Source of the DNA: Amphiscolops sp. MND2022
Taxonomy: Eukaryota
NCBI GenBank assembly: GCA_964187785.1
Contig: OZ076416.1
Coordinates: 16,554,001-16,618,000, forward strand
Length of the DNA: 64,000 nt
Direction: 5' to 3'
Part shown: one piece after another, positions 4,556 to 47,845 of the stretch
Layout of the letters: every line of letters starts with the position of its first letter
Numbering within the stretch: position 1 is the first letter of the stretch
The notes under the pieces: model-generated
What the model was told of the DNA's origin: nothing
The model's input: the letters and a program-made list of their open reading frames with translations, nothing else
The model's database searches: none
Position numbers and translations under genes: made by a program

Positions 4556-4710
4556 ATCATTTTTACTTGAATCATCAAAACGTTATATTTTTAGGGTCAA
4601 AAGTTAAAAATAATCCATTACATCATATCCCTAGAAAGTCTAAATATAGATCAATAACAAAGACACTCAGAAATATTATGCAAATTATGCTGATTATCAT
4701 CATAATTCTG

Positions 4711-21392: not shown

Positions 21393-21430
21393 TAACCGAA
21401 TAATTCCATAAATAGGCTTATCTCACAATA

Positions 21431-24400
21431 ATTATGGAGTTTCTCAAATCATGTATCGTGATTATGGAGTTTCTCAAATCATGTATCGTGATTAAGGAGT
21501 TTCTCAAATCATGTGTCGTGATTATGAAGTTTCTCAAATCATGTATCGTGATTATGAAGTTTCCCAAATCATGTAACGTGATTACGGAGTTTCTCAAATC
21601 ATGTATCGTGATTATGGAGTTTCTCAAATCATGTATCGTGATTATGAAGTTTCCCAAATCATGTATCGTGATTACGGAGTTTCTCAAATCATGTATTGTG
21701 ATTATGGAGTTTCTCAAATCACGTATCGTGGTTATGGATTTTCTCAAATCATGTATCGTGATAATGGAGTTTCGAGTTTCTCAAATCATGCATCGTGATG
21801 ATGGAGTTTCTCAAATCATGTAACGTGATTATGAAGTTTCTCAAATCATGTATCGTGATTATGGAGTTTCTCAAACCATGTATCGTGAGTACGGAGTTTC
21901 TCAAATCATGTATTGTGATTATGGAGTTTCTCAAATCATGTATCGTGATTATGGAGTTTGTCAAATCATGTATCGTGATTATGGAGTTTCTCAAATCATG
22001 TATCGTGATTATGAAGTTTTTCAAATCAAGTATCGTGTTTATGGAGTTTCTCAAATCATGTATCGTGATAATGGAGTTTCTCAAATCATGTATAGTGATA
22101 ATGCAGTTTCGAGTATCTCAAATCATGCATCGTGATTATGGAGTTTCTCAAATCATGTAACGTGATTATGAAGTTTCTCAAATCATGTATCGTGATTATG
22201 GAGTTTCTCAAATCATGTATCGTGATTATGAAGTTTCTCAAATCATGTATCGTGATTACGGAGTTTCTCAAATCATGTATTGTGATTATGGAGTCTCTCA
22301 AATCATGTATCGTGGTTATGGAGTTTCGCAAATCATGTATCGCGTTTATAGAGTTTCTCAAATCATGTATCGTGATTATGGAGTTTCTCAAATCATGAAT
22401 CGTGATTATGGAGTTTCTCACATCATGTATCGTGATTATGGAGTTTCTCAAATCATGTATCGTGATTATGGAGTTTCTCAAATCATGTATCGTGATTATG
22501 AAGTTTTTCGAATCATGTATCGTGATTATGGAGTTTCTCAAATCATGTATCGTGATTATGAAGTTTCTCAAATCATGTATCGTGATTATGAAGTTTCCCA
22601 AATCATGTATCGTGATTACGGAGTTTCTCAAATCATGTATTGTGAATATGGAGTTTCTCAAATCATGTATCGTGGTTATGGATTTTCTCAAATCATGTAT
22701 CGTGATAATGGAGTTTCGAGTTTCTCAAATCATGCATCGTGATTATGGAGTTTCTCAAATCATGTAACGTGATTATGAAGTTTCTCAAATCATGTATCGT
22801 GATTATGGAGTTTCTCAAATCTTGTATCGTGATTATGAAATTTCTCAAACCATGTATCGTGAGTACGGAGTTTCTCAAATCATGTATTGTGATTATGGAG
22901 TTTCTCAAATCATGTATCGTGATTATGGAGTTTGTCAAATCATGTATGGTGATTATGGAGTTTCTCAAATCATGTATAGTGATAATGGAGTTTCGAGTAT
23001 CTCAAATCATGCATCGTGATTATGGAGTTTCTCAAATCATGTAACGTGAATATGAAGTTTCTCAAATAATGTATCGTGATTATGGAGTTTCTCAAATCAT
23101 GTATCGTGATTATGAAGATTCTCAAATCATGTATCGTGATTACGGAGTTTCTCAAATCATGTATTGTGATTATGGAGTCTCTCAAATCATGTATCGTGAT
23201 TAAGGAGTTTCTCAAATCATGTATCGTGATTATGAAGTTTTCAAATCATGTATCGTGATTATGAAGTTTCCCGAATCATGTATCGTGATTACGGAGTTTC
23301 TCAAATCATGTATTGTGATTATGGAGTTTCTCAAATCATGTATCGTGGTTATGGATTTTCTCAACTCATGTATCGTGATAATGGAGTTTCGAGTTTCTCA
23401 AATCATGCATCGTGATTATGGAGTTTCTCAAACCATGTAACGTGATAATGAAGTTTCTCAAATCATGTATCGTGATCATGGAGTTTCTCAAATCTTGTAT
23501 CGTGATTATGAAATTTCTCAAACCATGTATCGTGAGTACGGAGTTTCTTAAATCATGTATTGTGATTATGGAGTTTCTCAAATCATGTATCGTGATTATG
23601 GAGTTTGTCAAATCATGTATCGTGATTATGGAGTTTCTCAAATCATGTATCGTGATTATGAAGTTTTTCAAATCATGTATCGTGTTTATGGAGTTTCTCA
23701 AATCATGTATCGTGATTATGGAGTTTCTCAAATCATGTATAGTGATAATGGAGTTTCGAGTATCTCAAATCATGCATCGTGATTATGGAGTTTCTCAAAT
23801 CATGTAACGTGATTATGAAGTTTCTCAAATCATGTATCGTGATTATGGAGTTTCTCAAATCATGTATCGTGATTATGAAGTTTCTCAAATCATGTATCGT
23901 GATTACGGAGTTTCTCAAATCATGTATTGTGATTATGGAGTCTCTCAAATCTTGTATCGTGGTTATGAAGTTTCGCAAATCATGTATCGTGATTATGGAG
24001 TTTCTCACATCATGTATCGTGATTATGGAGTTTCTCAAATCATGTATCGTGATTATGGAGTTTCTCAAATAATGTATCGTGATTAAGGAGTTTCTCAAAT
24101 CATGTATCGTGATTATGAAGTTTTTCGAATCATGTATCGTGATTATGGAGTTTCTCACATCATGTATCGTGATTATGGAGTTTCTCAAATCATGTATCGT
24201 GATTATGGAATTTCTCAAATCATGTATCGTGTTTATGGAGTTTCTCAAATAATGTATCGTGATTAAGGAGTTTCTCAAATCATGTATCGTGATTATGAAG
24301 TTTTTCGAATCATGTATCGTGATTATGGAGTTTCTCAAATCATGTATCGTGATTATGTCACTTCTCAAATCATGTATCGTGATTATGAAGTTTCTCAAAT

Positions 24401-27400
24401 CATGTATCGTGATTACGGAGTTTCTCAAATCATGTATTGTGATTATGGAGTCTCTCAAATCAAGTATCGTGATTAAGGAGTTTCTCAAATCATGTATCGT
24501 GATTATGAAGTTTTTCAAATCATGTATCGTGATTATGGAGTTTCCCAAATCATGTATCGTGATTACGGAGTTTCTCAAATCATGTATTGTGATTATGGAG
24601 TTTCTCAAATCATGTATCGTGATAATGAATTTTCTCAAATCATGTATCGTGATTACGGAGTTTCTCAAATCATGTATTGTGATTATGGAGTCTCTCAAAT
24701 CATGTATCGTGATTAAGGAGTTTCTCAAATCATGTATCGTGATTATGAAGTTTCTCAAATCATGTATCGTGATTATGAAGTTTCCCAAATCATGTATCGT
24801 GATTACGGAGTTTCTCAAATCATGTATTGTGATTATGGAGTTTCTCAAATCATGTATCGTGGTTATGGATTTTCTCAAATCATGTAACGTGATTATGGAG
24901 TTTCTCAAATCATGTAACGTGAGTATGAAGTTTCCCAAATCATGTATCGTGATTATGGAGTTTCTCAAGTCATGTATTGTGATTATGAAGTTTCTCAAAT
25001 CATGTATCGTGATTACGGAGTTTCTCAAATCATGTTTTGTGATAATGGAGTTTCGAGTTTCTCAAATCATGCATCGTGATTATGGAGTTTCTCAAATCAT
25101 GTAACGTGATTATGAAGTTTCTCTAATCATGTATCGTGATTATGAAGTTTCTCAAATCATGTGTCGTGATTAGGGAGTTTCGAGTTTCTCAAATCATGCA
25201 TCGTGATTATGGAGTTTCTCAAATCATGTATCGTAATTATGAAGTTTCTCAAACCTAGTATTGTGATTATGGAGTTTCTCAAATCATGTATCGTGATTAT
25301 TGAGTTTCTCAAATCATGTATCGTGATTATGAAGTTTCTCAAATCATGTATCGTGATTACGGAGTTTCTCAAATCATGTTTTGTGATTATGGAGTCTCTC
25401 GAATCATGTATCGTGATTAGGGAGTTTCTCAAATCATGTATCGTGATTATGAAGTTTCTCAAATCATTTATCGTGATTATGGAGTTTCCCAAATCATGTA
25501 TCGTGATTACGGAGTTTCTCAAATCATGTATTGTGATTATGGAGTTTCTCAAATCATGTATCGTGATTATGAAGTTTCTCAAATCATGTATCGTGAATAC
25601 GGAGTTTCTCAAATCATGTATTGTGATTATGGAGTCTCTCAAATCATGTATCGTGATTAAGGAGTTTCTCAAATCATGTATCGTGATTATGAAGTTTCTC
25701 AAATCATGTATCGTGATTATGAAGTTTCCCAAATCATGTATCGTGATTACGGAGTTTCTCAAATCATGTATTGTGATTATGGAGTTTCTCAAATCATATA
25801 TCGTGGTTATGGAATTTCTCAAATCATATAACGTGATTATGGAGTTTCTCAAATCGTGTAACGTGAATATGAAGTTTCTCAAATCATGTATCGTGATTAT
25901 GGAGTTTCTCAAATCATGTATCGTGATTATGAAGTTTCTCAAATCATGTATCGTGATTACGGAGTTTCTCTAATCATGTATTGTGATAATGGAGTTTCGA
26001 GTTTCTCAAATCATGCATCGTGATTATGGAGTTTCTCAAATCATGTAACGTGATTATGAAGTTTCTCTAATCATGTATCGTGATTATGAAGTTTCTCAAA
26101 TCATGTGTCGTGATTATGGAGTTTCCCAAATCATGTATCGTGATTACGGAGTTTCTCAAATCATGTATTGTGATTATGGAGTTTCTCAAATCATGTATCG
26201 TGATTATGAAGTTTCTCAAATCATGTCTCGTGATTATGAAGTTTCCCAAATCATGTATCGTGATTACGGAGTTTCTCAAATCATGTATTGTGATTATGGA
26301 GTTTCTCAAATCATGTATCGTGGTTATGGATTTTCTCAAATCATGTAACGTGATTATGGAGTTTCTCAAATCATGTAACGTGAATATGAAGTTTCTCAAA
26401 TCATGTATCGTGATTATGGAGTTTCTCAAATCATGTATCGTGATTATGAAGTTTCTCAAATCATGTATCGTGATTACGGAGTTTCTCAAATCATGTATTG
26501 TGATTATGGAGTCTCTCAAATCATGTATCGTGATAAAGGAGTTTCTCAAATCATGTATCGTGATTATGAAGTTTCTCAAATCATGTATCGTGATTATGAA
26601 GTTTCCCAAATCATGTATCGTGATTACGGAGTTTCTCAAATTATGTATTGTGATTATGGAGTTTCTCAAATCATGTATCGTGGTTATGGATTTTCTCAAA
26701 TCATGTATCGTGATATTGGAGTTTCGAGTTTCTCAAATCATGCATCGTGATTATGGAGTATCTCAAATCATGTAACGTGATAATGAAGTTTCTCAAATCA
26801 TGTATCGTGATTATGGAGTTTCTCAAATCTTGTATCGTGATTATGAAATTTCTCAAACCATGTGTCGTGAGTACGGAGTTTCTCAAATCATGTATTGTGA
26901 TTATGGAGTTTCTCAAATCATGTATCGTGATTATGGAGTTTGTCGAATCATGTATCGTGATTATGCAATTTCTAAAATCATGTATCGTGATTATGAAGTT
27001 TTTCAAATCATGTATCGTGTTTATGGAGTTTCTCAAATCATGTATCGTGATTATGGAGTTTCTCAAATCATTTATAGTGATAATGGAGTTTCGAGTATCT
27101 CAAATCATGCATCGTGATTATGGAGTTTCTCAAATCATGTAACGTGATTATGAAGTTTCTCAAATCATGTATCGTGATTGTGGAGTTTCTCAAATCATGT
27201 ATCGTGATTATGAAGTTTCTCAAATCATGTATCGTGATTACGGAGTTTCTCAAATCATGTACTGTGATTATGGAGTCTCTCAAATCATGTATCGTGGTTA
27301 TGAAGTTTCGCAAATCATGTATCGCGTTTATGGAGTTTCTCAAATCATGTATCGTGATTATGGAGTTTCTCAAATCATGAATCGTGATTATGGAGTTTCT

Positions 27401-30400
27401 CACATCATGTATCGTGATTATGGAGTTTCTCAAATCATGTATCGTGATTATGAAGTTTCTCAAATCATGTATCGTGTTTATGGAGTTTCTCAAATAATGT
27501 ATCGTGATTATGGAGTTTCTCAAATCATATATAGTGATTATGAAGTTTTTCGAATCATGTATCGTGATTATGGAGTTTCTCAAATCATGTATCGTGATTA
27601 TGGAGTTTCTCAAATCATGCATCGTGATTATGGAGTTTCTCAAATCACCTAACGTGGTTATGAAGTTTCTCAAATCATGTATCGTGATTACGGAGTTTCT
27701 CAAATTATGTATTGTGATTATGGAGTTTCTCAAATCATGTATCGTGGTTATGGATTTTCTCAAATCATGTATCGTGATATTGGAGTTTCGAGTTTCTCAA
27801 ATCATGCATCGTGATTATGGAGTATCTCAAATCATGTAACGTGATAATGAAGTTTCTCAAATCATGTATCGTGATTATGGAGTTTCTCAAATCTTGTATC
27901 GTGATTATGAAATTTCTCAAACCATGTGTCGTGAGTACGGAGTTTCTCAAATCATGTATTGTGATTATGGAGTTTCTCAAATCATGTATCGTGATTATGG
28001 AGTTTGTCGAATCATGTATCGTGATTATGCAATTTCTAAAATCATGTATCGTGATTATGAAGTTTTTCAAATCATGTATCGTGTTTATGGAGTTTCTCAA
28101 ATCATGTATCGTGATTATGGAGTTTCTCAAATCATTTATAGTGATAATGGAGTTTCGAGTATCTCAAATCATGCATCGTGATTATGGAGTTTCTCAAATC
28201 ATGTAACGTGATTATGAAGTTTCTCAAATCATGTATCGTGATTGTGGAGTTTCTCAAATCATGTATCGTGATTATGAAGTTTCTCAAATCATGTATCGTG
28301 ATTACGGAGTTTCTCAAATCATGTACTGTGATTATGGAGTCTCTCAAATCATGTATCGTGGTTATGAAGTTTCGCAAATCATGTATCGCGTTTATGGAGT
28401 TTCTCAAATCATGTATCGTGATTATGGAGTTTCTCAAATCATGAATCGTGATTATGGAGTTTCTCACATCATGTATCGTGATTATGGAGTTTCTCAAATC
28501 ATGTATCGTGATTATGAAGTTTCTCAAATCATGTATCGTGTTTATGGAGTTTCTCAAATAATGTATCGTGATTATGGAGTTTCTCAAATCATATATAGTG
28601 ATTATGAAGTTTTTCGAATCATGTATCGTGATTATGGAGTTTCTCAAATCATGTATCGTGATTATGGAGTTTCTCAAATCATGCATCGTGATTATGGAGT
28701 TTCTCAAATCACCTAACGTGGTTATGAAGTTTCTCAAATCATGTATCGTGATTATGGAGTTTCTCAAGTCTTGTATCGTGATTATGAAGTTTGTCAAATC
28801 GTGTATCGTGATTTTGAAGTTTCTCAAATCATGTATTGTGATTATGAAGTTTTTCGAATCATGTATCGTGATTATGGAGTTTCTCAAATCATGTATCGTG
28901 ATTATAGAGTTTCTCAAATCATGTATCGTGATAATGGAGTTTCGAGTTTCTCAAATCATGCATCGTGATTATGGAGTTTCTCAAATCATGTATCGTGATT
29001 ATGGAGTTTCTCAAATCATATATCGTGATTATGGAAGTTTTCAAATCTTTTATCGTGATTATGGAATTTCTGAAATCATGTATCGTGATGATGGAGCTTC
29101 TCAAATCATGTATCGTGATTATGGAGTTTCTCAAATCATGTATCGTGATTATGGAGTTTCTCAAATCATGTATCATGATTATGAAGTTTCTCAAATCATG
29201 TATCGTGATTTTGGAGTTTCTCAAATCATGTATCGTGATTATGGAGTTTCTCAAATCATGTATCGTGATTATGGAAGTTTTCAAATCTTGTATCGTGATT
29301 ATGCAGTTTCTGAAATCATGTATCGTGATTATGAGCTTCTCAAATCATGTATCGTGATTATGGAGTTTCTCAAATCATGTATCATGATTATGGAGTTCTC
29401 AAATCATGTATCGTAATTATGGAGTTTCTCAAATCATGAATCGTGTTTATGGAGTTTCTCAAATCATGTATCGTGATTATGGAGTTTCTCAAATCATGTA
29501 TCGTGAGTATGAAGTTTCTCAAATCATGCATCGTGATTATGGAGTTTCTCAAATCATGTAACGTGATTATGAAGTTTCTCAAATCATGTATCGTGATTAT
29601 GGAGTTTCTCAAATCATGTATCGTGATTATGAAGTTTCTCAAATCATGTATCGTGATTTTGAAGTTTCTCAAATCGTGTATCGTGATCATGGAGTTTCTC
29701 AAATCATGTATCGTGATTATGGAAGTTTTCAAATCTTGTATCGTGATTATGGAATTTCTGAAATCATGTATCGTGATTATGAAGTTTCTCAAATCATGTA
29801 TCGTGATTTTGGAGTTTCTCAAATCATGTATCGTGATTATGGAGTTTCTCAAATCATGTATCGTGATTATGGAAGTTTTCAAATCTTGTATCGTGATTAT
29901 GGAGTTTCTGAAATCATGTATCGTGATTATGAGCTTCTCAAATCATGTATCATGATTATGGAGTTCTCAAATCATGTATCGTGATTATGGAGTTTCTCAA
30001 ATCATGTATCATGATTATGGAGTTCTCAAATCATGTATCGTGATTATGGAGTTTCTCAAATCATGTATCGTGAGTATGAAGTTTCTCAAATCATGCATCG
30101 TGATTATGGAGTTTCTCAAATCATGTAACGTGATTATGAAGTTTCTCAAATCATGTATCGTGATTATGGAGTTTCTCAAATCATGTATCGTGATTATGAA
30201 GTTTCTCAAATCATGTATCGTAATTTTGAAGTTTCTCAAATCGTGTATCGTGAATACGGAGTTTGTCAAATCATGTATTGTGATTATGGAGTTTCTCAAA
30301 ACATGTATCGTGATTTTGGAGTTTCTCAAATCATGTATCGTGATCATGGAGTTTCTCAAATCATGTATCGTGACTATGGAAATTTTCAAATCTTGTATCG

Positions 30401-32614
30401 CGATTATGGAATATCTGAAATCATGTATCGTGATTATGGAGCTTCTCAAATCATGTATCGTGATTTTGGAGTTTCTCAAATCATGTATCGTGATTATGGA
30501 GTTTCTCAAATCATGTATCGTGATTATGGAAGTTTTCAAATCTTGTATCGTGATTATGGAGTTTCTGAAATCATGTATCGTGATTATGAGCTTCTCAAAT
30601 CATGTATCGTGATTATGGAGTTTCTCAAATCATGTATCATGATTATGGAGTTCTCAAATCATGTATCGTGATTGTGGAGTTTCTCAAATCATGTATCGTG
30701 TTCATAGAGTTTCTCAAATCATGTATCGTGATTATGGAGTTTCTCAAATCATGTATCGTGAGTATGAAGTTTCTCAAATCATGCATCGTGATTATGGAGT
30801 TTCTCAAATCGTGTAACGTGATTATGAAGTTTCTCAAATCATGTATCGTGATTATGGAGTTTCTCAAATCATGTATCGTGATTATGAAGTTTCTCAAATC
30901 ATGTATCGTGATTTTGAAGTTTCTCAAATCGTGTATCGTGAATACGGAGTTTGTCAAATCATGTATTGTGATTATGGAGTTTCTCAAAACATGTATCGTG
31001 ATTTTGGAGTTTCTCAAATCATGTATTTGTATCATGGAGTTTCTCAAATCATGTATCGTGATTATGGAAGTTTTCAAATCTTGTATCGTGTTTTTGTAGT
31101 TTCTGAAATCATGTATCGTGAATATGGAGCTTCTTAAATCCTGTATCGTGATTATGGAGTTTCTCAAATAATGTATCGTGATTATTGAGCTTCTCAAATC
31201 CTGTATCGTGATTATGGATTTTCTCAAATCATGTATCGTGATTATGGAGTTTCTCAAATCATGTATCATGATTATGAAGTTTCTCAAATCATGTATCGTG
31301 ATTTTGGAGTTTCTCAAATCATGTATCGTGATTATGGAGTTTCTCAAATCATGTATCGTGATTATGGAAGTTTTCAAATATTGTATCGTGATTATGGAGT
31401 TTCTGAAATCATGTATCGTGATTATGAGCTTCTCAAATCATGAATCGTGATTATGGAGTTTCTCAAATCATGTATCATGATTATGGAGTTCTCAAATCAT
31501 GTATCGTGATTATGGAGTTTCTCAAATCATGTATCGTGTTCATAGAGTTTCTCAAATCATGTATCGTGATTATGGAGTTTCTCAAATCATGTATCGTGAG
31601 TATGAAGTTTCTCAAATCATGCATCGTGATTATGGAGTTTCTCAAATCATGTAACGTGATTATGAAGTTTCTCAAATCATGTATCGTGATTATGGAGTTT
31701 CTCAAATCATGTATCGTGATTATGAAGTTTCTCAAATCATGTATCGTGATTTTGAAGTTTCTCAAATCGTGTATCGTGAATACGGAGTTTTTCAAATCAT
31801 GTATTGTGATTATGGAGTTTCTCAAAACATGTATCGTGATTTTGGAGTTTCTCAAATCATGTATTGGTATCATGGAGTTTCTCAAATCATGTATCGTGAT
31901 TATGGAAGTTTTCAAATCTTGTATCGTGTTTTTGTAGTTTCTGAAATCATGTATCGTGATTATGGAGCTTCTCAAATCCTGTATCGTGATTATGGAGTTT
32001 CTCAAATCATGTATCGTGATTATGGAGCTTCTCAAAACCTGTGTCGTGATTATGGATTTTCTCAAATCATGTATCATGATTATGGAGTTTCTCATATCAT
32101 GTGTCGTCTTTATGGAGTTTCTCAAATCATGTGTCGTGATTATGGAGTTTCTCAAATCATGTATCGTGATTATGGAGTTTCTCAAATCATGTATCGTGAT
32201 TATGGAATTTCTCAAGTCATGTATCGTGATGATGGAGTTTCTCAAATCATGTATCGTCATAATGGAGTTTCTCAATTCTTGTATCGTGATTATGGAGTTT
32301 CTCAAATCATGTATCGTGATTATGGAGTTTCTCAAATCATGTGTCGTGATTTTGGAGGTTCTCAAATTATGTATCGTGGTAATGGAGTTTCTCAAATCAT
32401 GTATCGTGATTAGGGAGTTTCGAGTTTCTCAAATCATGCATCGTGATTATGGAGTTTCTCAAATCATGTATCGTAATTATGAAGTTTCTCAAACCTAGTA
32501 TTGTGATTATGGAGTTTCTCAAATCATGTATCGTGATTATGGAGTTTCTCAAATCATGTATCGAGATTATGGAGTTTCTCAAATCATTTATCGTGATTAT
32601 GGAGTTTCTCAAAT
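21431..32614. repeat. Satellite DNA array, 30-bp monomer GATTATGGAGTTTCTCAAATCATGTATCGT, about 370 copies with higher-order structure
   Basis: Continuous tandem array of about 11.2 kb; 37-bp (+GAGTTTC) and 29-bp variant monomers punctuate it. Confidence 0.98.
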
Positions 32615-32738
32615 GATCATGAAGAGTTTTGACTTATTTATTGATATAAAACATTGTGGATTTTTCAGAAAACGCTCAAACGTTAGTTGTTGTATAATGC
32701 AAATATGCAAGTTCTATTTTTATCCAATGAAGTCCGCT

Positions 32739-33575: not shown

Positions 33576-33584
33576 CTTTATGAA

Positions 33585-35047
33585 TGTCGCAGGCTGCCGC
33601 CTGTGACGGCACATACTACCAGGTCACTCCAACTAATGACCAAAGCAACCCCGGACCAGGAGTCTTATCTATATAAAACACTCTCAAACTTTTAGAGCCT
33701 CAAAACAGTCAACTGACATTTACTTGCATTGATAAACTGATACAATTTTAATTGCAAGCAATATCTAATGTTTTACTAATTTGACCTGTAGTCATGTAGA
33801 CCGTATGAAATGTTCATTGTATTTATTTGACGTCCTTCATGGTGTAAAAGGAAACACATTCTGCTAAGAAAGCGTTGCAGTCTAATTGACGTGTTGTCCA
33901 CCATGATCACCTACGGCGCTAATAATGATTTTAGTACACTCATGCAGTCATTGTGACGCATAGTCGTATTTTAACTTTATGTAACTAGCAGTGCTAATTA
34001 AGCTATTTGGTGCCGTCACGTCAATTTGACGTTAGGTCAACATGTTCTTTCATGCTGTTTGATATCTATTTGATATGGATATTTTGACGCGATGTAGCAT
34101 CGCGTACATGAATTCACTAGTGATAGTTCGTAAACCACTTAAACTACTTCAATTCTATTTTTAGTGCATTACGTAATGTGACGCAATGTATGATTTGTAG
34201 CTATTTATAGCGAATTTGATGTCATGTATAAATTTAGGTCCTTGACATTCCAAATAATGAGTGTCATGGTCCGAATACTATATATGCTCGGATGCATTTG
34301 TGGATGTAATCATTGTTGATATTGCGAACGCTATTAAAACTGACAATTTCATACACTTTACCATTAGTCAATTCATTGTTGAAAATAAAGCGAACTTTCT
34401 TCACTATGCCTTCAACTAGAAAGCAGAAAGCTAAAGAAAAGAGAGCAAGGCAATCAGACGTAAGGTCAGATATTGAAAACCTTGAGGTTATGCTTGGAAG
34501 CTATTCTAGAGATGCTCTAGTAGAGCAAGGTAATGTTAGTGATGTAGAAAAGGACTTTGAGTCTAGTAGACACCAGCAAAATACTGATCTAATTGAAGGG
34601 AACCTCAGGTCACTTTTAAATGCTAATGAAAGCGAGAACAGTGAAATTACTGCAGAAACTATGAGGGTGAATAATTCAGAATTTTCCTCCCAAATGTCTA
34701 GAGAAAAAGATGAAATTAGATCTGACCTAAATTTGCAAATATTGGATGCTATTAACTCAGCAATCCAAGAAAAGGTGCTTCCTTCCATTGAAAATGCGCT
34801 AAAACCAGTTAAAACAGCTTCAAATGCTAAATGGGACCTTCGGTCAGATGGACCGCAGTCGAGCAGGGTGAATCAGCCATACGTGCAATATGACCTGAAG
34901 TCAGGCGGACTGCACAAAAGCAAGAAAGCTCAAATGAGCAAATACATTGACCTTAGGTCAGATGGACTGCATCTGGACAGATTCGGCCAGGATGCTCAGG
35001 AATGTGACCCTCGGTCAGATAGACCGCACCAAAGCGAAAATACGCAA
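33585..35047 (+). repeat. 5' LTR, missing its last 115 bp
   Basis: Matches 39603-41060, then diverges abruptly after AATACGCAA. Confidence 0.88.
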
Positions 35048-35353
35048 AATTGCGACTTAACAAACACTTCTGATGATCCTCCAGTTGATTCTGGGCACCA
35101 GGACGCCATAATTACAGATTTGGACCTTCAGTCCACCCGACGTGACCAAAATACTGACGACGCTGCTACCTTCGGTCCGCTCGACTGCAGCAAGATACTA
35201 ATTCAGATGAGTCTGAGCAAATGCCTGAGCAGCCGGATGAAAATATTGCTGACACGGACCTTAGGTCAACTCGACCGCAATCAAGTACTGATTCCGAAAT
35301 CGATGAAAATACCTCTAAAAGCCCCTCAGAAGCGGGAAATTCTGATTTTTTGA
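34406..35353 (+). CDS. ORF1 (MPSTRKQKAKEKRARQ...), chimeric across the deletion junction at 35047
   Basis: ATG at 34406 lies inside the LTR; basic N-terminus, coiled-coil segment, 19-aa DLRSDG repeats. Confidence 0.6.
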   Translation: MPSTRKQKAKEKRARQSDVRSDIENLEVMLGSYSRDALVEQGNVSDVEKDFESSRHQQNTDLIEGNLRSLLNANESENSEITAETMRVNNSEFSSQMSREKDEIRSDLNLQILDAINSAIQEKVLPSIENALKPVKTASNAKWDLRSDGPQSSRVNQPYVQYDLKSGGLHKSKKAQMSKYIDLRSDGLHLDRFGQDAQECDPRSDRPHQSENTQNCDLTNTSDDPPVDSGHQDAIITDLDLQSTRRDQNTDDAATFGPLDCSKILIQMSLSKCLSSRMKILLTRTLGQLDRNQVLIPKSMKIPLKAPQKREILIF

Positions 35354-35495
35354 ATTCTAGAGGGAAGGATATAATCGTGCCCGATTTATCAGACAATGAA
35401 GGTGATGAAATGGTTGTAGAAAATGAAAGTCCCAGGGGATGAAAATATAATCTACGTCCTAACCCTACCCTAAACTTTACTGATGAATACAGATA
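35221..35495 (+). pseudogene. Probable C-terminal tail of the deleted pol polyprotein
   Basis: Acidic low-complexity segment ending ...NESPRG*KYNLRPNPTLNFTDEYR*. A YNLR-type tail resembles gypsy integrase C-termini (inference). Confidence 0.4.
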
Positions 35496-35698
35496 ATGGC
35501 CAGAATATGTAAATTAAAGGCCCACAGTCCCCATCAACCGAGGTTATATATTTTAACTGGGCCCAATCTGACTGAAAGTATTCATGACTGCATGGATACA
35601 ATTATGCTAAATATAATACAAACAGAAATCGGATGCAATAATAAAGAACAACTGCGACAAGAAACAACCATAACAAAAAGAAATGAGATACAGTTCAT

Positions 35699-36877
35699 TC
35701 AATTGCAATTAAAGTTTACTACTGGAAGCTCGCAAATCTTCAGCAGAACGAGACAATTCGGTATCTGACAGCAAACGCCTACTACGTTTGTTTGACCTCG
35801 GGACTCCCAGAGACTTTGGGGCACTTCGAGAACTAGATGTAGCGGAATGACCCCCTCGTTCACTGCCGTGTGGATGTTCATCAGGTTCTTCAAGAGCCTT
35901 ACACATTTGAGAGCAAAAGTAGGGTGTCCTTGTGGCAGACTAATCGGCCGGGTCTCACTGAAGTATTTTCTGATGATCTCCCTACTTCCAATAGAGAGGG
36001 CAGCTAATCCGGTAGGCTCCCTGGGCTGATCTATAACAGTGATTTCGCTGGAGTCGTCAGACTGATCAGATGTGTCTCGTCGTACAGTATGAGCCATGGT
36101 TTGTGCAAATGTCGAACGTGGGTGGACGCTAGACTCTTGGTCACTGTCGACAGCATTTGGGGCCTCACTACTAGTGTACCCGATTAACGAAGTACTCTCA
36201 AATTGTTCGCCATCACTTGATGGTGTGTGAGAAGTAGGACGCAAAAATTTGGAAAACGTCCCAAGCTGGAGATCAGGTCCATGCGGCCCGGTAGTCGCGA
36301 TGTTCACTTCTGTCGGCACCTTCTTCTGCCGTGGCAAAGTTCGTGGATCCACTAAAATTGGAGCAGATGTACTCGGGACCAGTTCAGCCTCAATACAATG
36401 GGACTCCTGGGTAGCATCCATGACTGGGGATTCGTCTTCTGTGGTCGTTTCAAACGTTGGGATCTTGTCACTAATACTAACTTTAGGGGACTTCTCGGGA
36501 CTTTCAACTGTGACCTTAAGGTCTTGCATCATGTCCAACTTTCTAGCTATGAAGGCACTGCAGCTTTCTTCTGATCCACTGCTGTTAAACAGTAGCGCAG
36601 CTGCCAAACTCGCCTCATCTTGTTTATTTGCAGTCACATAAACAGGAGTCACGTTGACGGGAGGTAGACTTGAACTTTGGACTAATACACTTTGATCCTT
36701 TTCCAATTCTGGGAAAGAATGGATTTTGGGGGAAACGCCCTGTTCGGGAGCAACAACTGATATCGGAGTCGTGTCCATTTCTTCTTCACCTGTTTGCTGG
36801 GTCGGTTGGCCGTTCGGTTCATTGTCTGAGCAAAAAGATATGAATAAGCGCGGTTCACTTCCTGCATAAAAATCCAT
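35699..36877 (-). CDS. Antisense accessory ORF (about 390 aa; S/T/P/E-rich, unknown function; probable frameshift near the C-terminus)
   Basis: Open frame of 406 codons in the ORF track, first ATG at 36877, inside the LTR element on the opposite strand. Confidence 0.6.
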   Translation of the reverse strand: MDFYAGSEPRLFISFCSDNEPNGQPTQQTGEEEMDTTPISVVAPEQGVSPKIHSFPELEKDQSVLVQSSSLPPVNVTPVYVTANKQDEASLAAALLFNSSGSEESCSAFIARKLDMMQDLKVTVESPEKSPKVSISDKIPTFETTTEDESPVMDATQESHCIEAELVPSTSAPILVDPRTLPRQKKVPTEVNIATTGPHGPDLQLGTFSKFLRPTSHTPSSDGEQFESTSLIGYTSSEAPNAVDSDQESSVHPRSTFAQTMAHTVRRDTSDQSDDSSEITVIDQPREPTGLAALSIGSREIIRKYFSETRPISLPQGHPTFALKCVRLLKNLMNIHTAVNEGVIPLHLVLEVPQSLWESRGQTNVVGVCCQIPNCLVLLKICELPVVNFNCN

Positions 36878-37829
36878 CTTACCGCTTGAAAGACTTCCGG
36901 AAGCAAGTTTAAAATTCAACTATTTCACACAGCGTGTTATTATTTCACGATGGAGGAAGACACTTAGTCAATTGCGAACCCTGATCATGTTCAATTTTGG
37001 CAAATTAAAAGAACCAATCTGATGCTTTTTCCATGACGGAAAGGCAGAAATTTCAGTCTCAGCCAGGAAAAGAAGATAAGTTGACCCGACCAGTGATAAG
37101 TATGTTGGGATTCTCACGCAGTTGAAATAGTCTTCAGCAACCTCTGAGGTTAACTGTATGATTATTGAAATTCCAGGTCAAGAAATTCCTCTCGCTCGTA
37201 AATGTGGATGACCCAAAGTCAACGGGACTGCATACGGATTTTGGTACTCACTGACAGTGTGGATCAGTCGACGACAATGTGTAATCAGATATTCTGCTAA
37301 TCAACTCCCAATTTCTTTTTGATTAAATTCTCACGAGTAATATGAAGGGGAATGGTTAATTCGGACAATTCAAATTCAAAAATTTACAAACTGTGCTAGC
37401 TGAGAGAATAATCTCGCAATTTGTGCGAGAATCCTAGTAGCAATTCCAAGACTAAATTGGAAAGCAGGACTAAAGCAAGAGACTGCATCAAATCCTGACT
37501 GGAATTAACTCAAATCAGTTGAAAGTCCTTGGAAGTTATGTTCAATTGCTAATTATGACATTGAAGCAGAACTATATTGGACACAATATGAACAACTGGA
37601 TTTCAAAGATGAGTACGATACTGTGATTAGATGACGTAATGGCCGTTACCATCTGTCAATCATAATTATCATTTACTTAAGCTGACTGTACATCCGCTTG
37701 ACTACTACTTATTACTTACTTATTAAAAATTACATTATAGGACAATAAGTCCGTTTGACTGCAAACGAATACATGTACTCACTTATTGGAAAAGTTGGTC
37801 CGGCAATACACCTAGCCTCATTCCTCCAT

Positions 37830-38866: not shown

Positions 38867-39694
38867 ATGTCTCTTCAATTCAAGATAGAAGAATATCCAA
38901 GATCCCTAGTCAGCTCAGCCTACGCTTCCTCTGATGAAGACATGGACATAGACTCAGTGATTTCGATCCAAGATCAGTGGGACAGGGAATCGGGTGATGA
39001 TGAAATTCAGGTACTGACCTGTTATCACGAGAATCCACCGTTCCCCCCGCAACTTGTAGCAGGAAGGACAATGACGACCAGCCTGACCCAATGTCTTGAT
39101 GACTTGAGCTTGCCGTCAACCCATTGTAATGATACCATTGACACTTTCACCGAACCCTCAGGTGAACTGGTCAATTGGCCGATAGGGCACCCACCTGCAA
39201 CTTATGACCATCAACCAATTGAATACCATCCAACCGCAGACTGTGGTCAACTCAACCCAGTAGTCGTGTCACCCGCATCACCCCCTTTGATTGACCACAT
39301 GCCATCCTATCAGTACGAAAACCAGTACCAACCTGGGCACTACATTGACCAGTGGGCACGTAATCCTCACATCACCGGCCTAGCTATTTCAGCTAGCGGT
39401 TCCTGTGGACAATCCAACGATGTGTACCACTCTGACTGTATCGTCTGCGGCAAGTCTTTCCCAGAAATCACTGAAGAAATTACGCTGGGATACCTAGAAG
39501 GCAATCACGTCACAGGCGAAACGTACGACCAACGGATGGAGAGGAGACGAGCGTTTCAAGCTGGTATGAAGGCAGGTTCCTTCATTTTATTCCCCCAGGG
39601 AGTGTCGCAGGCTGCCGCCTGTTACGGCACATACTACCAGGTCACTCCAACTAATGACCAAAGCAACCCCGGACCAGGAGTCTTACCTATATAA
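38867..39694 (+). CDS. Sense accessory ORF (275 aa, unknown) ending 92 nt inside the 3' LTR
   Basis: Uninterrupted ATG-to-TAA frame with acidic N-terminus, Pro-rich middle and HSDCIVCGK (CxxC) followed by a helical C-terminal segment. Confidence 0.65.
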   Translation: MSLQFKIEEYPRSLVSSAYASSDEDMDIDSVISIQDQWDRESGDDEIQVLTCYHENPPFPPQLVAGRTMTTSLTQCLDDLSLPSTHCNDTIDTFTEPSGELVNWPIGHPPATYDHQPIEYHPTADCGQLNPVVVSPASPPLIDHMPSYQYENQYQPGHYIDQWARNPHITGLAISASGSCGQSNDVYHSDCIVCGKSFPEITEEITLGYLEGNHVTGETYDQRMERRRAFQAGMKAGSFILFPQGVSQAAACYGTYYQVTPTNDQSNPGPGVLPI

Positions 39695-41175
39695 AACACT
39701 CTCAAACTTTTAGAGCCTCAAAACAGTCAACTGACATTTACTTGTATTGATAAACTGATACGATATTAATTGCAAGCAACATCTAATGTTTTACTAATTT
39801 GACCTGTAGTCATGTAGACCGTATGAAATGTTCATTGTATTTATTTGACGCCTTTCATGGTGCAAAAGGAAACACATTCTGCTAAGAAAGCGTTGCAGTC
39901 TAATTGACGTGTTGTCCACCATGATCACATACGGCGCTAATAATGATTTTAGTACACTCATGCAGTCATTGTGACGCATAGTCGTATTTGAACTTCAAGT
40001 AACTTGCAGTGCTAATTAAGCTATTTGGTGCCGTCAATTTGACGTTAGGTCAACATGTTCTTTCATGCTGTTTGATATCTATTTGATATGGATATTTTGA
40101 CGCGATGTAGCACCGCGTACATGAATTCACTAGTGATAGTTCGTAAACCACTTAAACTACTTCAATTCTATTTTTAGTGCATTACGTAATGTGACGCAAT
40201 GTATGATTTGTAGCTATTTATAGCGAATATGATGTCATGTATAAATTTAGGTCCTTGACATTCCAAACAATGAGTGTCATGGTCCGAATACTATATAAGC
40301 TCGGATGCATTTGTGGATGTAATCATTGTTGATATTGCGAACGCTATTAAAACTGACAATTTCATACACTTTACCATTAGTCAATTCATTGTTGAAAATA
40401 AAGCGAACTTTCTTCACTATGCCTTCAACTAGAAAGCAGAAAGCTAAAGAAAGGAGAGCAAGGCAATCAGACGTAATGTCAGATATTGAAAACCTTGAAG
40501 TTATGCTTGGGAGCTATTCTAGAGATGCTCTAGTAGAGCAAGGTAATGTTAGTGATGTAGAAAGGGACTTTGAGTCTAGTAGACACCAGCAAAATAGTGA
40601 TCTAATTGAAGGGAACATCAGGTCACTTTTAAATGCTAATGAAAGCGAGAACAGTGAAATCACTGCAGAAACTATGAGGGTGATTAATTCGGAAATTTCC
40701 TCCCAAATGTCTAGAAAAATAGATGAAATTAGATCTGACTTAAATTTGCAAATATTGGATGCTATTAACTCAGCAATCCAAGAAAAGGTGCTTCCTTCCA
40801 TTGAAAATGCGCTAAAACCAGTTAAAACAGCTTCAAATGCAAAATGGGGCCTTCGGTCAGATGGACCGCAGTCGAGCAGGGTGAATCAGCCAGACCTGCA
40901 ATATGACCTGAAGTCAGGCGGACTGCACAAAAGCAAGAAAGCTCAAATGAGCAAATACATTGACCTTAGGTCAGATGGACTGCATCTGGACAGATTCGGC
41001 CAGGATGCTCACGTATGTGACCCTCGGTCAGATAGACCGCACCAAAGCGAAAATACGCAATCTAACCTAGAAACAGGTGAAAATCGCTCTAAAATGAGTT
41101 TTAAAGAAAGTAACCGTGCCAATCATCTCAGAGAGAGTTCAATAGACTCTATTGAGAGTGAAGATGGTTACGACA
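39603..41175 (+). repeat. 3' LTR (1573 bp), complete
   Basis: TGTCGC...TACGACA termini, followed by ATGAC (TSD copy). Confidence 0.9.
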
Positions 41176-41201
41176 ATGACCTTGAGAAACAGTCAGGGTG
41201 A
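40419..41201 (+). CDS. ORF1 copy within the 3' LTR (252 codons with no stop inside the LTR; terminates in flanking DNA)
   Basis: Same sequence as 34406 onward; open through the LTR end at 41175. Confidence 0.6.
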   Translation: MPSTRKQKAKERRARQSDVMSDIENLEVMLGSYSRDALVEQGNVSDVERDFESSRHQQNSDLIEGNIRSLLNANESENSEITAETMRVINSEISSQMSRKIDEIRSDLNLQILDAINSAIQEKVLPSIENALKPVKTASNAKWGLRSDGPQSSRVNQPDLQYDLKSGGLHKSKKAQMSKYIDLRSDGLHLDRFGQDAHVCDPRSDRPHQSENTQSNLETGENRSKMSFKESNRANHLRESSIDSIESEDGYDNDLEKQSG

Positions 41202-42199: not shown

Positions 42200-45100
42200 T
42201 TTTCAATTGAAATCGATGAGTCATTGCTTCAAACAAATGAGTTCCAACTATAATTCAAACTTTTGAAAGATCATACATGTATCAAAGATGAATGTTTTCC
42301 CCGCTTTTTGTGAATACGTTCATATGTGTTTCCAGTTTTCTAACATCCTGAGTGTTTTAATTGCTAAAATCAACATTTCCGGAAATAAAATTTTTTACTT
42401 TTTTTCCCTTTACTATTACTTTTCTGGCTGATGGAGCGGCCTGGTCTGCCTCTAAAAGATTAGGGCTATCAGTGAGACACAATTTGGTCCGCCGACCCGG
42501 ACATACGAACTTTGAACATTCGAAAAGAAACTACTTTTCGGAACTTTGTCCCTTAAGTTGTCCACTAAGTAACACTTGATTGTCAAGTAACTAATTACCG
42601 AGTAACTCACACGCAAACCCTTCAACCTGCTAGTCTCAGCTTCATTCAGAATTGATCGTCATGCTCCGGTTAGCTTTTTCCATTTTGCAACTTAAAGGCA
42701 ATTCGTTTCTTCGACGGTGAAAAAAATGTGGATCCCCTGATAGTTTGGGCTTTATTATTACCTCCTGAAATTTCGCATACAAATAAAGTCACATTTTTAT
42801 GAAGTTTCTGATCGACAATCAGGTTAACCCTGGCAAACATAGAGAACTTCACTCATGATAAATGTTATCGGTGCAAGTACACTAAAAACGAGCTTTACAA
42901 AATTTGGATAATGTTATTCGAAATACACTTGAAAACTATATCACAGCCATTCCTTCTTTGAGTTTGAACCCCCATGCTCAACGTGATACGCTCAAATAGT
43001 CTTTTCTACTGGATCATGGTATTCGTAAGAATACGAATCAGTTAGTTATTTGGCATGACACCCTGAACAACTCCTTGACTCCCCATAAATCAAACAACAA
43101 TACCGCTCTTACCCCATAGGAATTAGCAACTGAAATGTTGAAATTTAAATCACGTATAGCTTTGGTCTATTGTGAACGTATCAGTGCACCACTTGCATTT
43201 GATGATTTTCGTGATCAAGATTTCACTTTTTTTAAAAGCAAAGTTTGAAAAAATAATGTTGGAAAATTTTATCATATCCGGTGAGTTGAATTCGGTGTTG
43301 TCACTTGATGATTAGCTCATCGGTGGCCAATCCAATTCGACTTTGAGGATTATTCAATTTGTTTGTTCATCGTTCGCGCTAGTGTTGTATTGTAATCAGA
43401 AAATTATCTGTAATTGAACGTAGTGATTCCACCCAACCAGCCACTGATGATAGGAATCTTAGCCGCATCAGAGGTAGTCACACAGGTGCTTTCACTAGAT
43501 TGGAACACAAAGTTGACGATTTCTCGGTCACTGCTATTGACTCTTCCACTGAATTATTTCAAGGTGAAGATGAAGACATTACAAGATCGACTTCCATTGA
43601 TTCCTAAATTCGATGCGGAAATAGATTTATTGATAGAAGATGAAGATGATTCAGTCAGTGAATTGGAACAGCAAACGGAGTTCCTTGTTTCTGCTAGTGT
43701 TACCATTGGTAGGTTGTCTGCATTGATTGAGAAATATGAAACGGAATGTGATAGATCTTCGCGTGAGTTTCAACAGACCCTTTTTCATCAAATTTCGCCA
43801 CATTGGGTAGAATGAAGCTTCCGAAACTTCAATTACCAACTTTCACTGGATCATACACTGACTGGATTTGTTTTTTCGACCTGTTCCCTGCCTCCGTTGA
43901 TTCAAATTTATACCTCTCCAATTCAAAAAAAGCTGAACTATTTGAAGGCCTGTCTAAAGGGTGAAGCAGCGAGATCAATTAGTTCATTCTCGACAACTGA
44001 CGCAAGCTACAATATTGCTTTGAACAAGTGTTGAATATTGCTTTCAAAAACTACCAACTACTTACCAATGAGATTGACGAGCACTTGTTGAACTTGGTCA
44101 ACCAATAGAGCATTGGAATGCTATCTTAGTCTTTGTTCTGACCAACAAAATGAATCCAGAGTCTTGCTGATAGACGTACGTTCGTTGAAAACAAAAAAAC
44201 AATGTTGTAACTGCTTCCAATTAAGACACTCGTCTAAAGCGTGCCCATCTAAGTGAGTGCAAAATGAAACACTACAGCTTGCTTAATCGACCTCATAAAA
44301 CAGCTCCCTGATCAACACACCATTAAAAAGTCTTTTTCAAGTATGATTCCAACTTCCAACAAAATGGAATCTACTAAGCAATTCACCACATGGCACTTTA
44401 GTGCTGACAATGAAATAAACACTGTTCTTCTCTCTTCATCGCTTGTAACAATCATATTGGAAACTCATCGGCAGACGCGATCAAGATTAAGATGTTGCAA
44501 AAGCGCTCATGCTGCCAACTCAGCGCAGCCTGATAAAAAATTCAACCATGGGTCCTTCCTATTTTCAAAAGACTCGAGGCTTATTGTCAGTGAAGTTGAA
44601 TGACACTATCGAAGTTAACCTTCACCTCATACCAAAAACCTCAAATACCATTCACAATAAAGAAATCGACGTTTCGACCATGCGCCATGTGAACAATCTC
44701 AACTTAGCTGATCCCACTTTCAACGTTCCTGGTAAAGTCGATCTCTTGGTAGGTGCAGATGTTATAGAAGATTTTTTGCTTGTTAACATAATAAAAGATA
44801 AAGGCTTGTGCATTCAGGATTCCATGTTTTGGTTGGGTTTTGTCTGATCCTGTGTACTCGTCTGGCAGTAACAACGTTGTGTCTCACGTGACTACAACCC
44901 ATATGACTACTTTACTTTGGATAAGAGTCGTTGTGAAGAGTACTTTGATAACACTACAAGACGCAATGAAGACCGCCGTTTTGTAGTACAGATGCCATTT
45001 AAATATGGACCCCACAACTTAGGCCTTTCGAAAGCGAACGCAATGAAGCGTTTCATTCGTTTTAGATATACATTGCGACACAATGTCGATGTTTTTCGTA

Positions 45101-47845
45101 AGTATTCAGCTTTTATTCGAGATTTCATTGACCTTGGACACTTGGCGAAAGTCCAACCCATGGGGATTTAAAATGCTCCAATCTTCTACTTGCCTCATCA
45201 TCTCGTACTGGAAGATAGTACAACCATAAAGTTGCGTGTTGTAGTTGATGCTTGTGCTAAAACGACAACTGGTTTTTCACTTATTGATTGTTTGCTTGAA
45301 CCCAAACTTCAAGATATTTGTGTAATATTCTTGTACGATTCCGTTTTCTCAAAGTTGCTTTTTCAGCTGATGTTCCGAAAATGTATCAGCAAGTTGAGCT
45401 GGATAAAGCCAATTGGGACTTTCATCGGCTTCTTTGGAGCTGAGGGACAGATTGAAACTTTACGCATGACCAGAGTTACATATGGCGTAGCTTCCTCATC
45501 GTATCATTCAATCCGGTCTTTGCAAAAATTTGCCAATCATTCAGAAGTACCCTCTGACGTGGAAAGAGCTATAATGAGTGATCTTTATGTTGATGACATT
45601 CTCACTGGACTCAATTCGATTGATTAAGCTCGAATACTCCAGAAACCATTAGTAGAAATTCTTAAACGAGGAAGATTTGATCTCCGCAACTGGACTTCGA
45701 ACGAATCAAGCAATATTTTAGACCTTCCGCCGGAGTGAGCAAATGAAAAATAGGAAATTTTAGTGAAAGACCATACAATTAGAACGCTCGGTATTTTTTG
45801 TCAACACTGCGAACATCGCTTTGTTTTTGAGCTTTCCCACATCGAAAAGAATAACTTTGAAAGAAAGGTATCGACCAAACGAAAAATGCTCACTGACATT
45901 TCGAAGACTTTCGACCCAATGGGTTGATTATCATCAATTACCGTTTTCTTGAAACAGTTGATGCAAAGGGCTTGGGAAGCAAGTATTTCATGGGATGATC
46001 AAGTTCCCTTCGAAGTGCAAACAAATTGAATTGGAATCATGTGGGTACCGAGGAAAATCCTGAGCATCCTGCATCTCGAGGAGTTAATCCATGACTTATG
46101 ATGGAATGGTCAGAAGTGGTTAATAACAGGGGAAGATCCCAAATCGTTTTCAATTGGTGAAACGTCTGATGAGCTGAAAAAGTCGACTCTAACAACGCGA
46201 ATTAACAGTTTTTATGACTCTGTGGATCACAGGGAAATCACAAAAGATGTTGTTGATATGTCAAAGTTTAACTCCCTAAACAATGTACTTCGAAAACTGG
46301 CTCACGCTAGGCGTTTTATCAACAAACCAAAGAAGAACGTGGTTGTTTCACTGCCCCAGATTTGGAAAAGTCAATCTTAAATTTGATTCGCCAGGAACAA
46401 AAGAAGCGATATTCAGACGAAATCCGAGGTCACGGAAGAAATTGCACAACAAGTGAAGCCTAAGAGTCAAATATGCAAATTATACACCTTTCTCGATAAT
46501 GGAGAACTTTGTGTTGGAGGAAGATTAGTACATGCAAAGTTGCCCGAAGAAAGCAAGTTTCAGTGACTAATTCTTCAAGACAATCACCTCGCACGCCTAG
46601 CTGTATTGAATTCTCACCAGCTGACACACCATGATGGGACTAGTCACATAATCGCCCATATCAGAACTCGTTTCTGGATTCCCCGTTGTAGAAATTTGGT
46701 TCAAAAAATAATAATGAAATGCGTCAATTGTATTTGCTTCAAGTCGAAGCCAGTTTCCTCCTTGAGTTTTCCCCAAACCCAAGAGTTGACCCAAACTCTA
46801 AAAGCTTTTTTGAGGACGTAGGCCAAAACTATGCAGGGCCTTTCTTTGTAGGAAATCTCCAAAATCTCCTGAAGAGTCCTACTTACTACTTCTTGTGTGC
46901 TTTGCCAGTAAAGCAGTTCACCTGTAAGTAGTGGCTGATCTCAGTACAGCACCATGTATTGCAGCCATTAGAAGATTCGTCTCTCGCAGATGTTGTCCTA
47001 AAAAGTTTTATAGTGACAATGAGCAAAACTTTGTTGGTTCAGAGAAAGAAGATGAACACTGTGACTCTTTGCAGACTGAAGCAGCTGGCTTGCTCATCGA
47101 GTGGTTCTTCATCCCTCCAAGAGCTCCTCACTTTGTTGGCCTATGGGAATCACCAATCAAGGGTGCAAAGATACAACTCCGAAAACTTATGGGAAACAAA
47201 TTTCTCTCCTTCGAAGAATTATGTACTCTGCTTTGTCAAATTGAAATGATTTTGAATTCAAGACCAATCTGCCCCTTATCAGATGATCAAAATGACGATT
47301 TTTTTTACTCCTGCTCGTTTCTGTTTGGGTGGAAAGTTGGAGAATTTACCTTTGAGCCAGACTACTAATGATTTGAAAAAGACTGACAGTACACTTTACT
47401 CTCAAGATTCAAGGATACAAATTCAGAATATGGTCCCTAATTTTTGGAAAAAAATCCGTCAAAGACTTTGTACTCTCACTACAAGAAAGAAAAAATGGAG
47501 ACATGAAACTTCTAACTTAGAAGTTGGTGATATTGTTTTTTTAATTGACGAAAATGTTCCTCCACTGCAGTGGTCGTGGCTAAAATTCAACATCTCTACA
47601 CTGTCCCAGACAAGTTTGTGAGAGTTGTAAAAATAAAAACTGCTACAAGAATCTACAATCGATGCTAATTTCAAAGATTATTTCATATGACTTCGTTCTC
47701 TAACTATTATATTTGTCATACTATGCCCTATTTCATTGCGCTTACCCGTGTTATGTATTGATTTGAATTTCATTTGAAATCGTTGAGTCATTGCTTCAAA
47801 TAAATGAGTTCAAATTATAGTTCAAAATTGTAGAAGATCAAGCAC
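42200..47845 (+). mobile_element. Decayed BEL/Pao LTR retrotransposon
   Basis: Gag KLQLPTFTGSYTDW...KLNYLKACLKGEAA; RT YLPHHLV...KLRVVVDA, TRVTYG, LYVDDILTG; integrase YAGPF, RRFVSRR, SDNEQNFVG, WFFIPPRAPHFVGLWE, VGDIV. A direct repeat at about 42200-42275 and 47765-47840 may be LTR remnants. TTTGGTCC PBS-like site near 42483. Confidence 0.9.

Follow-up and report, generated by a model that had tools for sequence, protein, structure and literature searches.

Long terminal repeats with coding sequence at both borders in Ty3/gypsy-type retrotransposons of Amphiscolops sp. MND2022

The window considered here is a 64,000-nucleotide stretch of DNA from Amphiscolops sp. MND2022 (assembly GCA_964187785.1, contig OZ076416.1, positions 16,554,001 to 16,618,000 of the forward strand), and the locus under study is a retrotransposon copy whose right-hand long terminal repeat (LTR) holds the end of one open reading frame (ORF) and the beginning of another. 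The features of this copy, in window coordinates, are as follows.

33580 to 33584, forward strand: left target-site duplication (TSD), ATGAA; the right copy is ATGAC
33585 to 35047, forward strand: 5' LTR, cut short by an internal deletion, 97% identical to the 3' LTR
34406 to 35047, forward strand: predicted Gag start within the 5' LTR; beyond the deletion the frame reaches 35353, out of register with the integrase tail
35048 to 35498, forward strand: integrase C-terminal tail, the sole remnant of pol, found by tblastn with a relative's Pol
35699 to 36967, reverse strand: remnant of an antisense accessory gene, matching residues 1-357 in the 709-aa antisense ORF that a related family carries
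38867 to 39694, forward strand: sense accessory ORF3, 275 aa, acidic and proline-rich, with a C-terminal segment (CxxC, helix, Cys) that straddles the LTR start
39597 to 39602, forward strand: six-purine run AGGGAG within ORF3, at the polypurine tract (PPT) position
39603 to 41175, forward strand: 3' LTR, 1573 bp, TG...CA, ends shared with relatives
39603 to 39694, forward strand: ORF3 tail inside the LTR (2 nt, 29 codons and the stop)
40256 to 40279, forward strand: conserved TGAC-N16-GTCA inverted repeat, lying 36 nt ahead of the TATA box, a possible binding site of a dimeric factor
40292 to 40328, forward strand: TATA box (40292-40298) and initiator-like TCATTG (40323-40328), with a putative transcription start near 40324
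40419 to 41175, forward strand: ORF1, the predicted LTR-borne N-terminus of Gag, 252 codons (basic helix, acidic spacer, long amphipathic helix, disordered indel-rich linker)
41176 to 41201, forward strand: right TSD (41176-41180) and run-on of ORF1 into the host flank, with a stop at 41201

The repeat at 39603-41175 is confirmed as a genuine 3' LTR, belonging to a Ty3/gypsy-type copy that is dead and has lost internal sequence. The 1573-bp unit starts with TGTCG and ends with CGACA, and the copy is bordered by ATGAA and ATGAC, a 5-bp TSD whose two halves differ at one base. When the LTR end was searched against the organism's genome (1.07 Gb), 40 matches were scored, and many of these formed pairs 9-15 kb apart; the unit recurs at about 96% identity in one solo copy and in three full-length relatives (contigs C3, C4 and C5), which have it at both ends, with 5-bp TSDs as well as a primer binding site (PBS). 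The coordinates that the sequence-only reading gave for the LTR are exact, and its description of the contents was borne out: the last 92 nt of the 275-aa upstream ORF lie inside the LTR, the ATG at 40419 opens 252 codons plus one nucleotide before the LTR end with no intervening stop, AGGGAG is the only purine run before the LTR, and coding sequence makes up 54% of the repeat ((92+757)/1573 = 849/1573). It is extremely improbable that the repeat is instead a local duplication, or that the true LTR is shorter with the ORFs outside it or unselected. The left copy in the window does hold just the first 1463 bases of the repeat, but this shortness is due to the deletion; the LTR is not shorter in other copies, and the identical 1573-bp ends of the relatives, with TSD and PBS, rule out both duplication and a shorter LTR, while a codon-position signal is present at both coding ends.

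By comparison with a longer relative (L033, 1932-7874), about 5.9 kb is missing from the window copy, from inside the 5' LTR to the integrase tail, and this deletion took the LTR end, the PBS, the capsid and most of pol. Two further antisense ORFs of the related family are missing as well. Over 1458 aligned bases the two LTRs of the copy show 38 substitutions, plus one 5-nt indel, and, lacking PBS, capsid and reverse transcriptase (RT), the copy is dead. Because its 5' LTR is cut by the deletion, read-through into gag is seen in relatives rather than in the window copy itself.

Paired LTRs, 5-bp TSDs and a PBS directly behind the 5' LTR were found in four lineages of this genome.

MPSTR families: paired LTRs of 1451-1731 bp, 5-bp TSD and PBS
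Family K: paired LTRs of 1634 bp, 5-bp TSD and PBS
MGNKR families: paired LTRs of 1874-1880 bp, 5-bp TSD and PBS
MPERS families: paired LTRs of 1894 and about 2204 bp, 5-bp TSD and PBS

The PBS, TGGTGACAGGAG, is complementary at 12 of 12 bases to the 3' end of genomic tRNA-Leu(CAG) plus CCA, an assignment for which ARAGORN called one of six loci. In the Pol of two relatives, Pfam domains follow the order protease, RT, RNase H, integrase (PR-RT-RH-IN), and a phmmer search of PDB placed Ty3 Gag-Pol first (E 2.5e-48) ahead of a PR/RT/RNase H chain (1.4e-27), so that closeness of the RT to Ty3 over retroviruses is a similarity rank and not a tree. The Gag of relatives matched DUF1759 (3.6e-6) and zf-CCHC (1.8e-4) in Pfam, with Retrotrans_gag and Ty3_capsid under the cut-off, and a fold search returned capsids in its top rows, but at E > 0.2. 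Membership of Ty1/copia was rejected because the integrase does not precede the RT, and membership of BEL/Pao because the two Pol proteins lack Pao-type protease and RNase H domains in Pfam: neither Peptidase_A17 nor DUF1758 was found at E <= 0.5, despite DUF1759 in Gag. The element is classed as a Ty3/gypsy-type LTR retrotransposon.

Some further properties of these lineages were observed. Between protease and RT, residues 342-423 of one Pol (L117) form a dUTPase-like segment (PF00692, E 6e-4, below the cut-off). Another element (L118, 1002-5316, reverse strand) carries three long antisense ORFs of 709, 206 and 387 aa between pol and ORF3, with a weak C2H2 match only; the window's family retains only the first ~357 residues of the 709-aa ORF. 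Head-to-tail elements that apparently share an LTR occur at C13:16.10-16.14 Mb, at C5:3.36-3.40 Mb and in the metagenome contig L205, and at least 7 tandem LTR-like units with a spacing of about 1.94 kb lie at C9:6870000-6883000 (L047-L049). The window itself contains, at 3788-5457 on the reverse strand, a 1670-bp solo LTR of the MGNKR lineage, whose Gag begins MGNKR, with the TSD ATAAT/ATAAT and an LTR-borne Gag start at 4318.

What ORF1 encodes was examined at 90 loci taken from three protein searches, which as top-scoring matches are biased towards intact and redundant young copies. Among them, 44 have a PBS no more than 1 kb from the ATG and 43, being 3' and solo LTRs, are without one; the remaining 3 lack an ATG at the expected place. 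In the PBS-bearing loci the LTR end is in phase in 43 of 44, the frame is open through both LTR end and PBS in 41, and 37 encode a Gag of 519-599 aa; in a further set of 59 LTRs, the PBS-bearing ones are in phase and open in 17 of 21 cases. The junction between LTR and PBS is translated as ...YD|MVTG, YH|MVTG, SY|MVTG or QH|MVTG, and downstream of it follow a spacer, a capsid region and a CCHC knuckle. ORF1 is accordingly read as the N-terminus of Gag, the coat protein, which is likely to be translated straight across the primer site; the sequence-only reading had noted that ORF1 would have to continue through U5 and the PBS, and in full-length relatives it does so, into gag. The number of Gag codons within the LTR is 252 in the window's family and 214-217, 181, 183-186 or 118 in others. 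In the linker (window 40905-41040), one motif is present three times at 57-nt spacing, and these copies are the likely reason for 252 codons here against 214-217 in sister families.

An AlphaFold2 model of a relative's Gag (36-sequence alignment, mean pLDDT 48.8) has, in its LTR-borne part, a basic helix at 4-24 and a long helix at 83-141 with pLDDT 83-90 across 91-130, the remainder being disordered. No Pfam family matched the LTR part of ORF1, and the ESM Atlas gave no usable match for the LTR-borne protein. The segment is predicted to be a matrix-like add-on, composed of a basic tip, a long amphipathic helix and a flexible linker and preceding a Gag that is otherwise complete with capsid and nucleocapsid. 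It had also been proposed that each insertion or solo LTR would leave behind a promoter and a coiled-coil ORF1 fragment; the fragment left by solo and 3' LTRs is real in the DNA, and the coiled coil is better described as one long predicted amphipathic helix. The presence of a complete Gag behind the junction mildly favours growth of Gag into U5 over movement of the PBS into gag. A relative whose Gag starts behind the PBS was sought with two proteins called from the junction Met (P0132 and P0139), which match this genome at only ~52%; their matches here mostly carry the LTR-borne extension, and no such outgroup was found in this genome by this route.

The junction Met (CA|TGG), where the last base of the LTR meets the PBS, is in the Gag frame in all five lineages, and the ~380 residues past it, with spacer, capsid and zinc knuckle, constitute a whole Gag alone. 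Two forms of Gag might therefore be made, the long form starting at the LTR ATG and a short, conventional form at the junction Met by internal initiation or splicing, and in Ty1 a short form is produced from an internal transcript (PMC13709905). We consider this possibility rather doubtful. An ATG is present in any CA|TGG junction, and, since one of the two other frames meets TGA at once, the coincidence has a chance of about 1 in 2; as a by-product of CA|TGG, the junction Met is weak evidence for a short Gag. Its -3 base differs among lineages (G, C, T), and several in-frame Mets lie upstream of it.

At the opposite border of the LTR, the phase of ORF3 across the LTR start is fixed in every lineage (Gly-Val/Leu-Ser), so that the upstream ORF crosses the PPT position, as the sequence-only reading had described, in one phase throughout. 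Of 54 further LTRs whose start was located, 52 have the ORF3 stop at LTR base 92; the stop lies at base 89 in K, at 48 in MGNKR and at 62 in one MPERS family, and one MPERS copy has a shifted tail of 20 nt. In two distant lineages the CxxC motif is wholly inside the LTR (L205, 7958-8037; L212 of MPERS, 5772-5833). Pfam gave no family for the ORF3 of the window, and no envelope family for three ORF3 proteins. No canonical PPT was found before the 3' LTR in the lineages examined. The last 15 bases contain 7-10 purines, with runs of 5-7 of GGGGAG type in MPSTR and K; the MGNKR families (L124, 7225-7247, L126 and L128) have no pure purine tract, reading AAAAATGCTGGAC, nor does L212, reading GAAGCCGAGGAC. 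The LTR pairs of these latter families are 99.8-99.9% identical, which indicates that they moved recently.

Selection on the two coding ends was estimated by the method of Nei and Gojobori, in which dS often exceeded 1 and approached saturation, so that the dN/dS ratios are rough. Of 21 MPSTR/K pairs, 16 allowed dN/dS of the LTR-borne part of Gag to be calculated, with values of 0.13-0.38, and the MGNKR pair gave 0.11; the part of Gag behind the LTR gives 0.03-0.10, and the distal linker, at 0.11-0.81, is weakly constrained. When 21 pairs from 7 families were pooled, pS/pN over the first 140 Gag codons came to 0.64/0.18 in the Gag frame, compared with 0.22/0.27 and 0.24/0.27 for the two remaining frames, and variable columns at the three codon positions number 54, 48 and 120 of 139. 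The 29-codon tail of ORF3 shows the same pattern, with a pooled pS/pN of 0.66/0.20 and 14, 11 and 22 variable columns of 23. Between families, pooled pN/pS is about 0.3 at both ends. Mean nucleotide identity along the LTR, over 28 pairs and against a shuffled control of 0.52, is 0.67 in the ORF3 tail, 0.54 in mid-U3, 0.63 in the core promoter, 0.70 at the Gag start and 0.52 in the linker, and the U3 between the coding ends is unalignable between families. The coding ends at both LTR borders are thus under purifying selection between families. The sequence-only reading had named the dN/dS of the LTR-borne ORF as a check, with common interruption and a ratio near 1 as the adverse outcome; the ORF is open in the great majority of PBS-bearing loci (41/44), and the between-family ratios of 0.11-0.38 are well below 1. 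In the window's own decayed family (family A), pN/pS is 0.47-1.57 in 7 comparisons, and in its sister subfamily 0.10 in 2 comparisons: dead copies decay neutrally, and it is the replicating lineage rather than the inserted copies that is under selection.

Between the coding ends lies a putative promoter. The inverted repeat TGAC-N16-GTCA is present in 56 of 59 related LTRs, mostly exactly 36 nt before the TATA box, and is a candidate site for a dimeric factor, possibly one encoded by the element. A TATA box occurs 112-126 nt before the ATG in 55 of the 59, and a search with the same pattern found no TATA hexamer in two MGNKR families. The cap site, the poly(A) site and the Gag start codon were all placed from sequence; a cap near 40324 would give a leader of about 95 nt and put the PBS ~850 nt behind the cap. 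Among the 59 LTRs no poly(A) hexamer keeps a fixed position, the best bin holding 24, and the AATAAA at 40397 in the window was rejected as a signal for mapping R since it is absent from related LTRs. Recombination breakpoints were sought in 52 retrieved LTRs and 7 family representatives, 8 of the 60 retrieved having been left out (1 without an ATG in place, 5 without a located start and 2 with a displaced start). They were found in 13 of 26 LTR types, scattered without clustering from -293 to +329, too widely for R to be mapped from them. Among the retrieved LTRs (L213-L272), U3 and Gag-start types are freely recombined: a single U3 type is combined with three types of Gag, and a single Gag type with four of U3. 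Comparable mosaics of U3 and Gag are reported for the Tf elements of fission yeast (bioRxiv 10.1101/2022.12.06.519325).

In standard reverse transcription, the U3 of both new LTRs is copied from the 3' end of the RNA and R-U5 from its 5' end. In these elements the Gag frame begins 118-252 codons before the LTR end and is open across the tRNA-Leu PBS, and the last accessory ORF ends inside the LTR start; very probably this is because both gene ends are translated from the element RNA and copied into both LTRs in each round of reverse transcription. Transcription would start ~95 nt upstream of the Gag ATG, and R-U5, together with minus-strand strong-stop DNA, would span ~850 nt in the window's family, most of it coding for Gag. 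The template for U3 would be the RNA 3' end, which has ORF3 in full and from which the ORF3 tail would be inherited; for R-U5 it would be the 5' end, which has Gag in full and would pass on the Gag start in the same manner. Plus-strand priming would proceed from a short or impure purine tract that is constrained by the protein sequence of ORF3. Since each coding end would be inherited from the copy in which it functions, selection could act on a sequence that is useless as a fragment in the other LTR, and inheritance from opposite RNA ends would account for selection at both borders of an LTR whose intervening U3 changes fast. That U3 and Gag-start types are freely shuffled also fits this scheme.

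Every LTR bears promoter motifs together with a Gag fragment, and a first-look search returned 24,339 candidates, which is not a copy number. The fragment could conceivably be expressed from 3' and solo LTRs and act as a dominant-negative control on the copy number of its own family, given that truncated Gags restrict Ty1, with p22 of Ty1 and Drt2 as precedents (PMC13709905). Such a function is very unlikely. The dead copies of family A have the pN/pS values near neutrality given above (0.47-1.57, 7 comparisons), a stop falls within 90 codons in 3 of 7 putative solo LTRs (those with neither PBS nor purine run) against 0 of 27 3' LTRs among the 59, and the known Ty1 restrictors rely on a capsid domain, which the LTR-borne fragment lacks. 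Quite unlikely, too, is the most far-reaching proposal, namely a multi-host clade of large Ty3/gypsy elements in which the LTR would be a two-gene cassette with ~850 nt of coding strong-stop DNA and no canonical PPT, and the Gag fragments of thousands of 3' and solo LTRs would serve as a self-encoded brake on spread. Inheritance of the two coding ends from opposite ends of the RNA is the reading favoured here.

Beyond this genome, a profile search of protein clusters at 50% identity gave 2941 matches at E <= 0.001, and several of the 12 sequences inspected have the same plan of basic tip, helix and MVTG. A metagenome scan yielded 2 loci out of 581 candidate stretches. The metagenome contig L205 has the end of pol, ORF3, a motif that marks the LTR start with unchanged phase, an extension of 129 codons, the PBS known from this genome, and Gag. 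The LTR start was placed, by that motif rather than by comparison with a second LTR, at 1792 bp before the junction. In one query, the N-terminus of this contig's family (P0142) had no match in the present genome, and L205 therefore probably derives from another host. The layout is thus found in four lineages of this genome and in L205, and is kept across lineages whose Gags are 34-36% identical.

Several known systems are comparable in part. In Ty1 of Saccharomyces cerevisiae, a Ty1/copia element, only about a dozen GAG codons lie in the LTR, as against 118-252 here, and no accessory ORF enters U3. Published work describes a Ty1 PBS that likewise lies inside the GAG frame, at RNA nt 94-104 rather than at about nt 850 as estimated here (PMC4974528), and a disordered N-terminal Gag region before the capsid that is required in Ty1 (PMC10372613). 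Given the PBS inside GAG in Ty1, the layout described here is an extreme and not a first; compared with Ty1, the coding in the LTR is much longer and double-ended. The present analysis adds the double-ended coding, its breadth over five lineages, the signs of selection at both ends and the weak PPT. With Ty3 and canonical Ty3/gypsy (Metaviridae-type) elements, the present ones share the PR-RT-RH-IN order, the CCHC knuckle, TG...CA LTRs and the 5-bp TSD, and they differ from them in a Gag that starts in the LTR, a tRNA-Leu primer, LTRs of 1.45-2.2 kb, extra ORFs in sense and antisense, and the lack of a long pure PPT. HIV nef, which runs across the 3' PPT, and MMTV sag are 3' accessory ORFs that read into U3 as ORF3 does, but in these viruses the PPT is long and pure and gag starts downstream of the PBS, and ORF3 has no detected likeness to either protein (no Pfam match). 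Plant elements (Grande, RIRE2, Retand and those with env-like ORFs) carry additional ORFs after pol and before the 3' LTR, in sense or antisense; a review describes these as placed in the internal region, in contrast to ORF3, and its text has no match for 'within the LTR', 'in the LTR' or 'overlap' (PMC7264820). Phrase matching in the literature, a search with most subscription papers and Repbase outside it, gave no account of this clade, of a gag segment of 100 or more codons in an LTR, or of a double-ended coding LTR.

An LTR can therefore carry a coding load of up to 54%, with both ends under selection, and the arrangement predicts that the first product of reverse transcription is unusually long and that the plus strand is primed from a poor purine tract. 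In this abundant clade, any solo LTR resembles a promoter followed by a gene of 120-250 codons and will mislead gene annotation, and tools that demand a PPT or a non-coding LTR will mis-call such elements.

The remainder of the window contains other repeats. At 1-1200, on the reverse strand, lies a different gag-bearing element of apparently canonical layout, with a putative PBS, TGGCGCAG, at ~1163 and a gag ATG at 1100. An 11-kb satellite with a 30-bp unit and many spurious ORFs occupies 21290-32620, and the broken ORFs at 43447-47621 apparently resemble a BEL/Pao element. Finally, 60900-62030 and 62870-64000 form a direct repeat of at least 1131 bp, 99.9% identical and cut by the window end.
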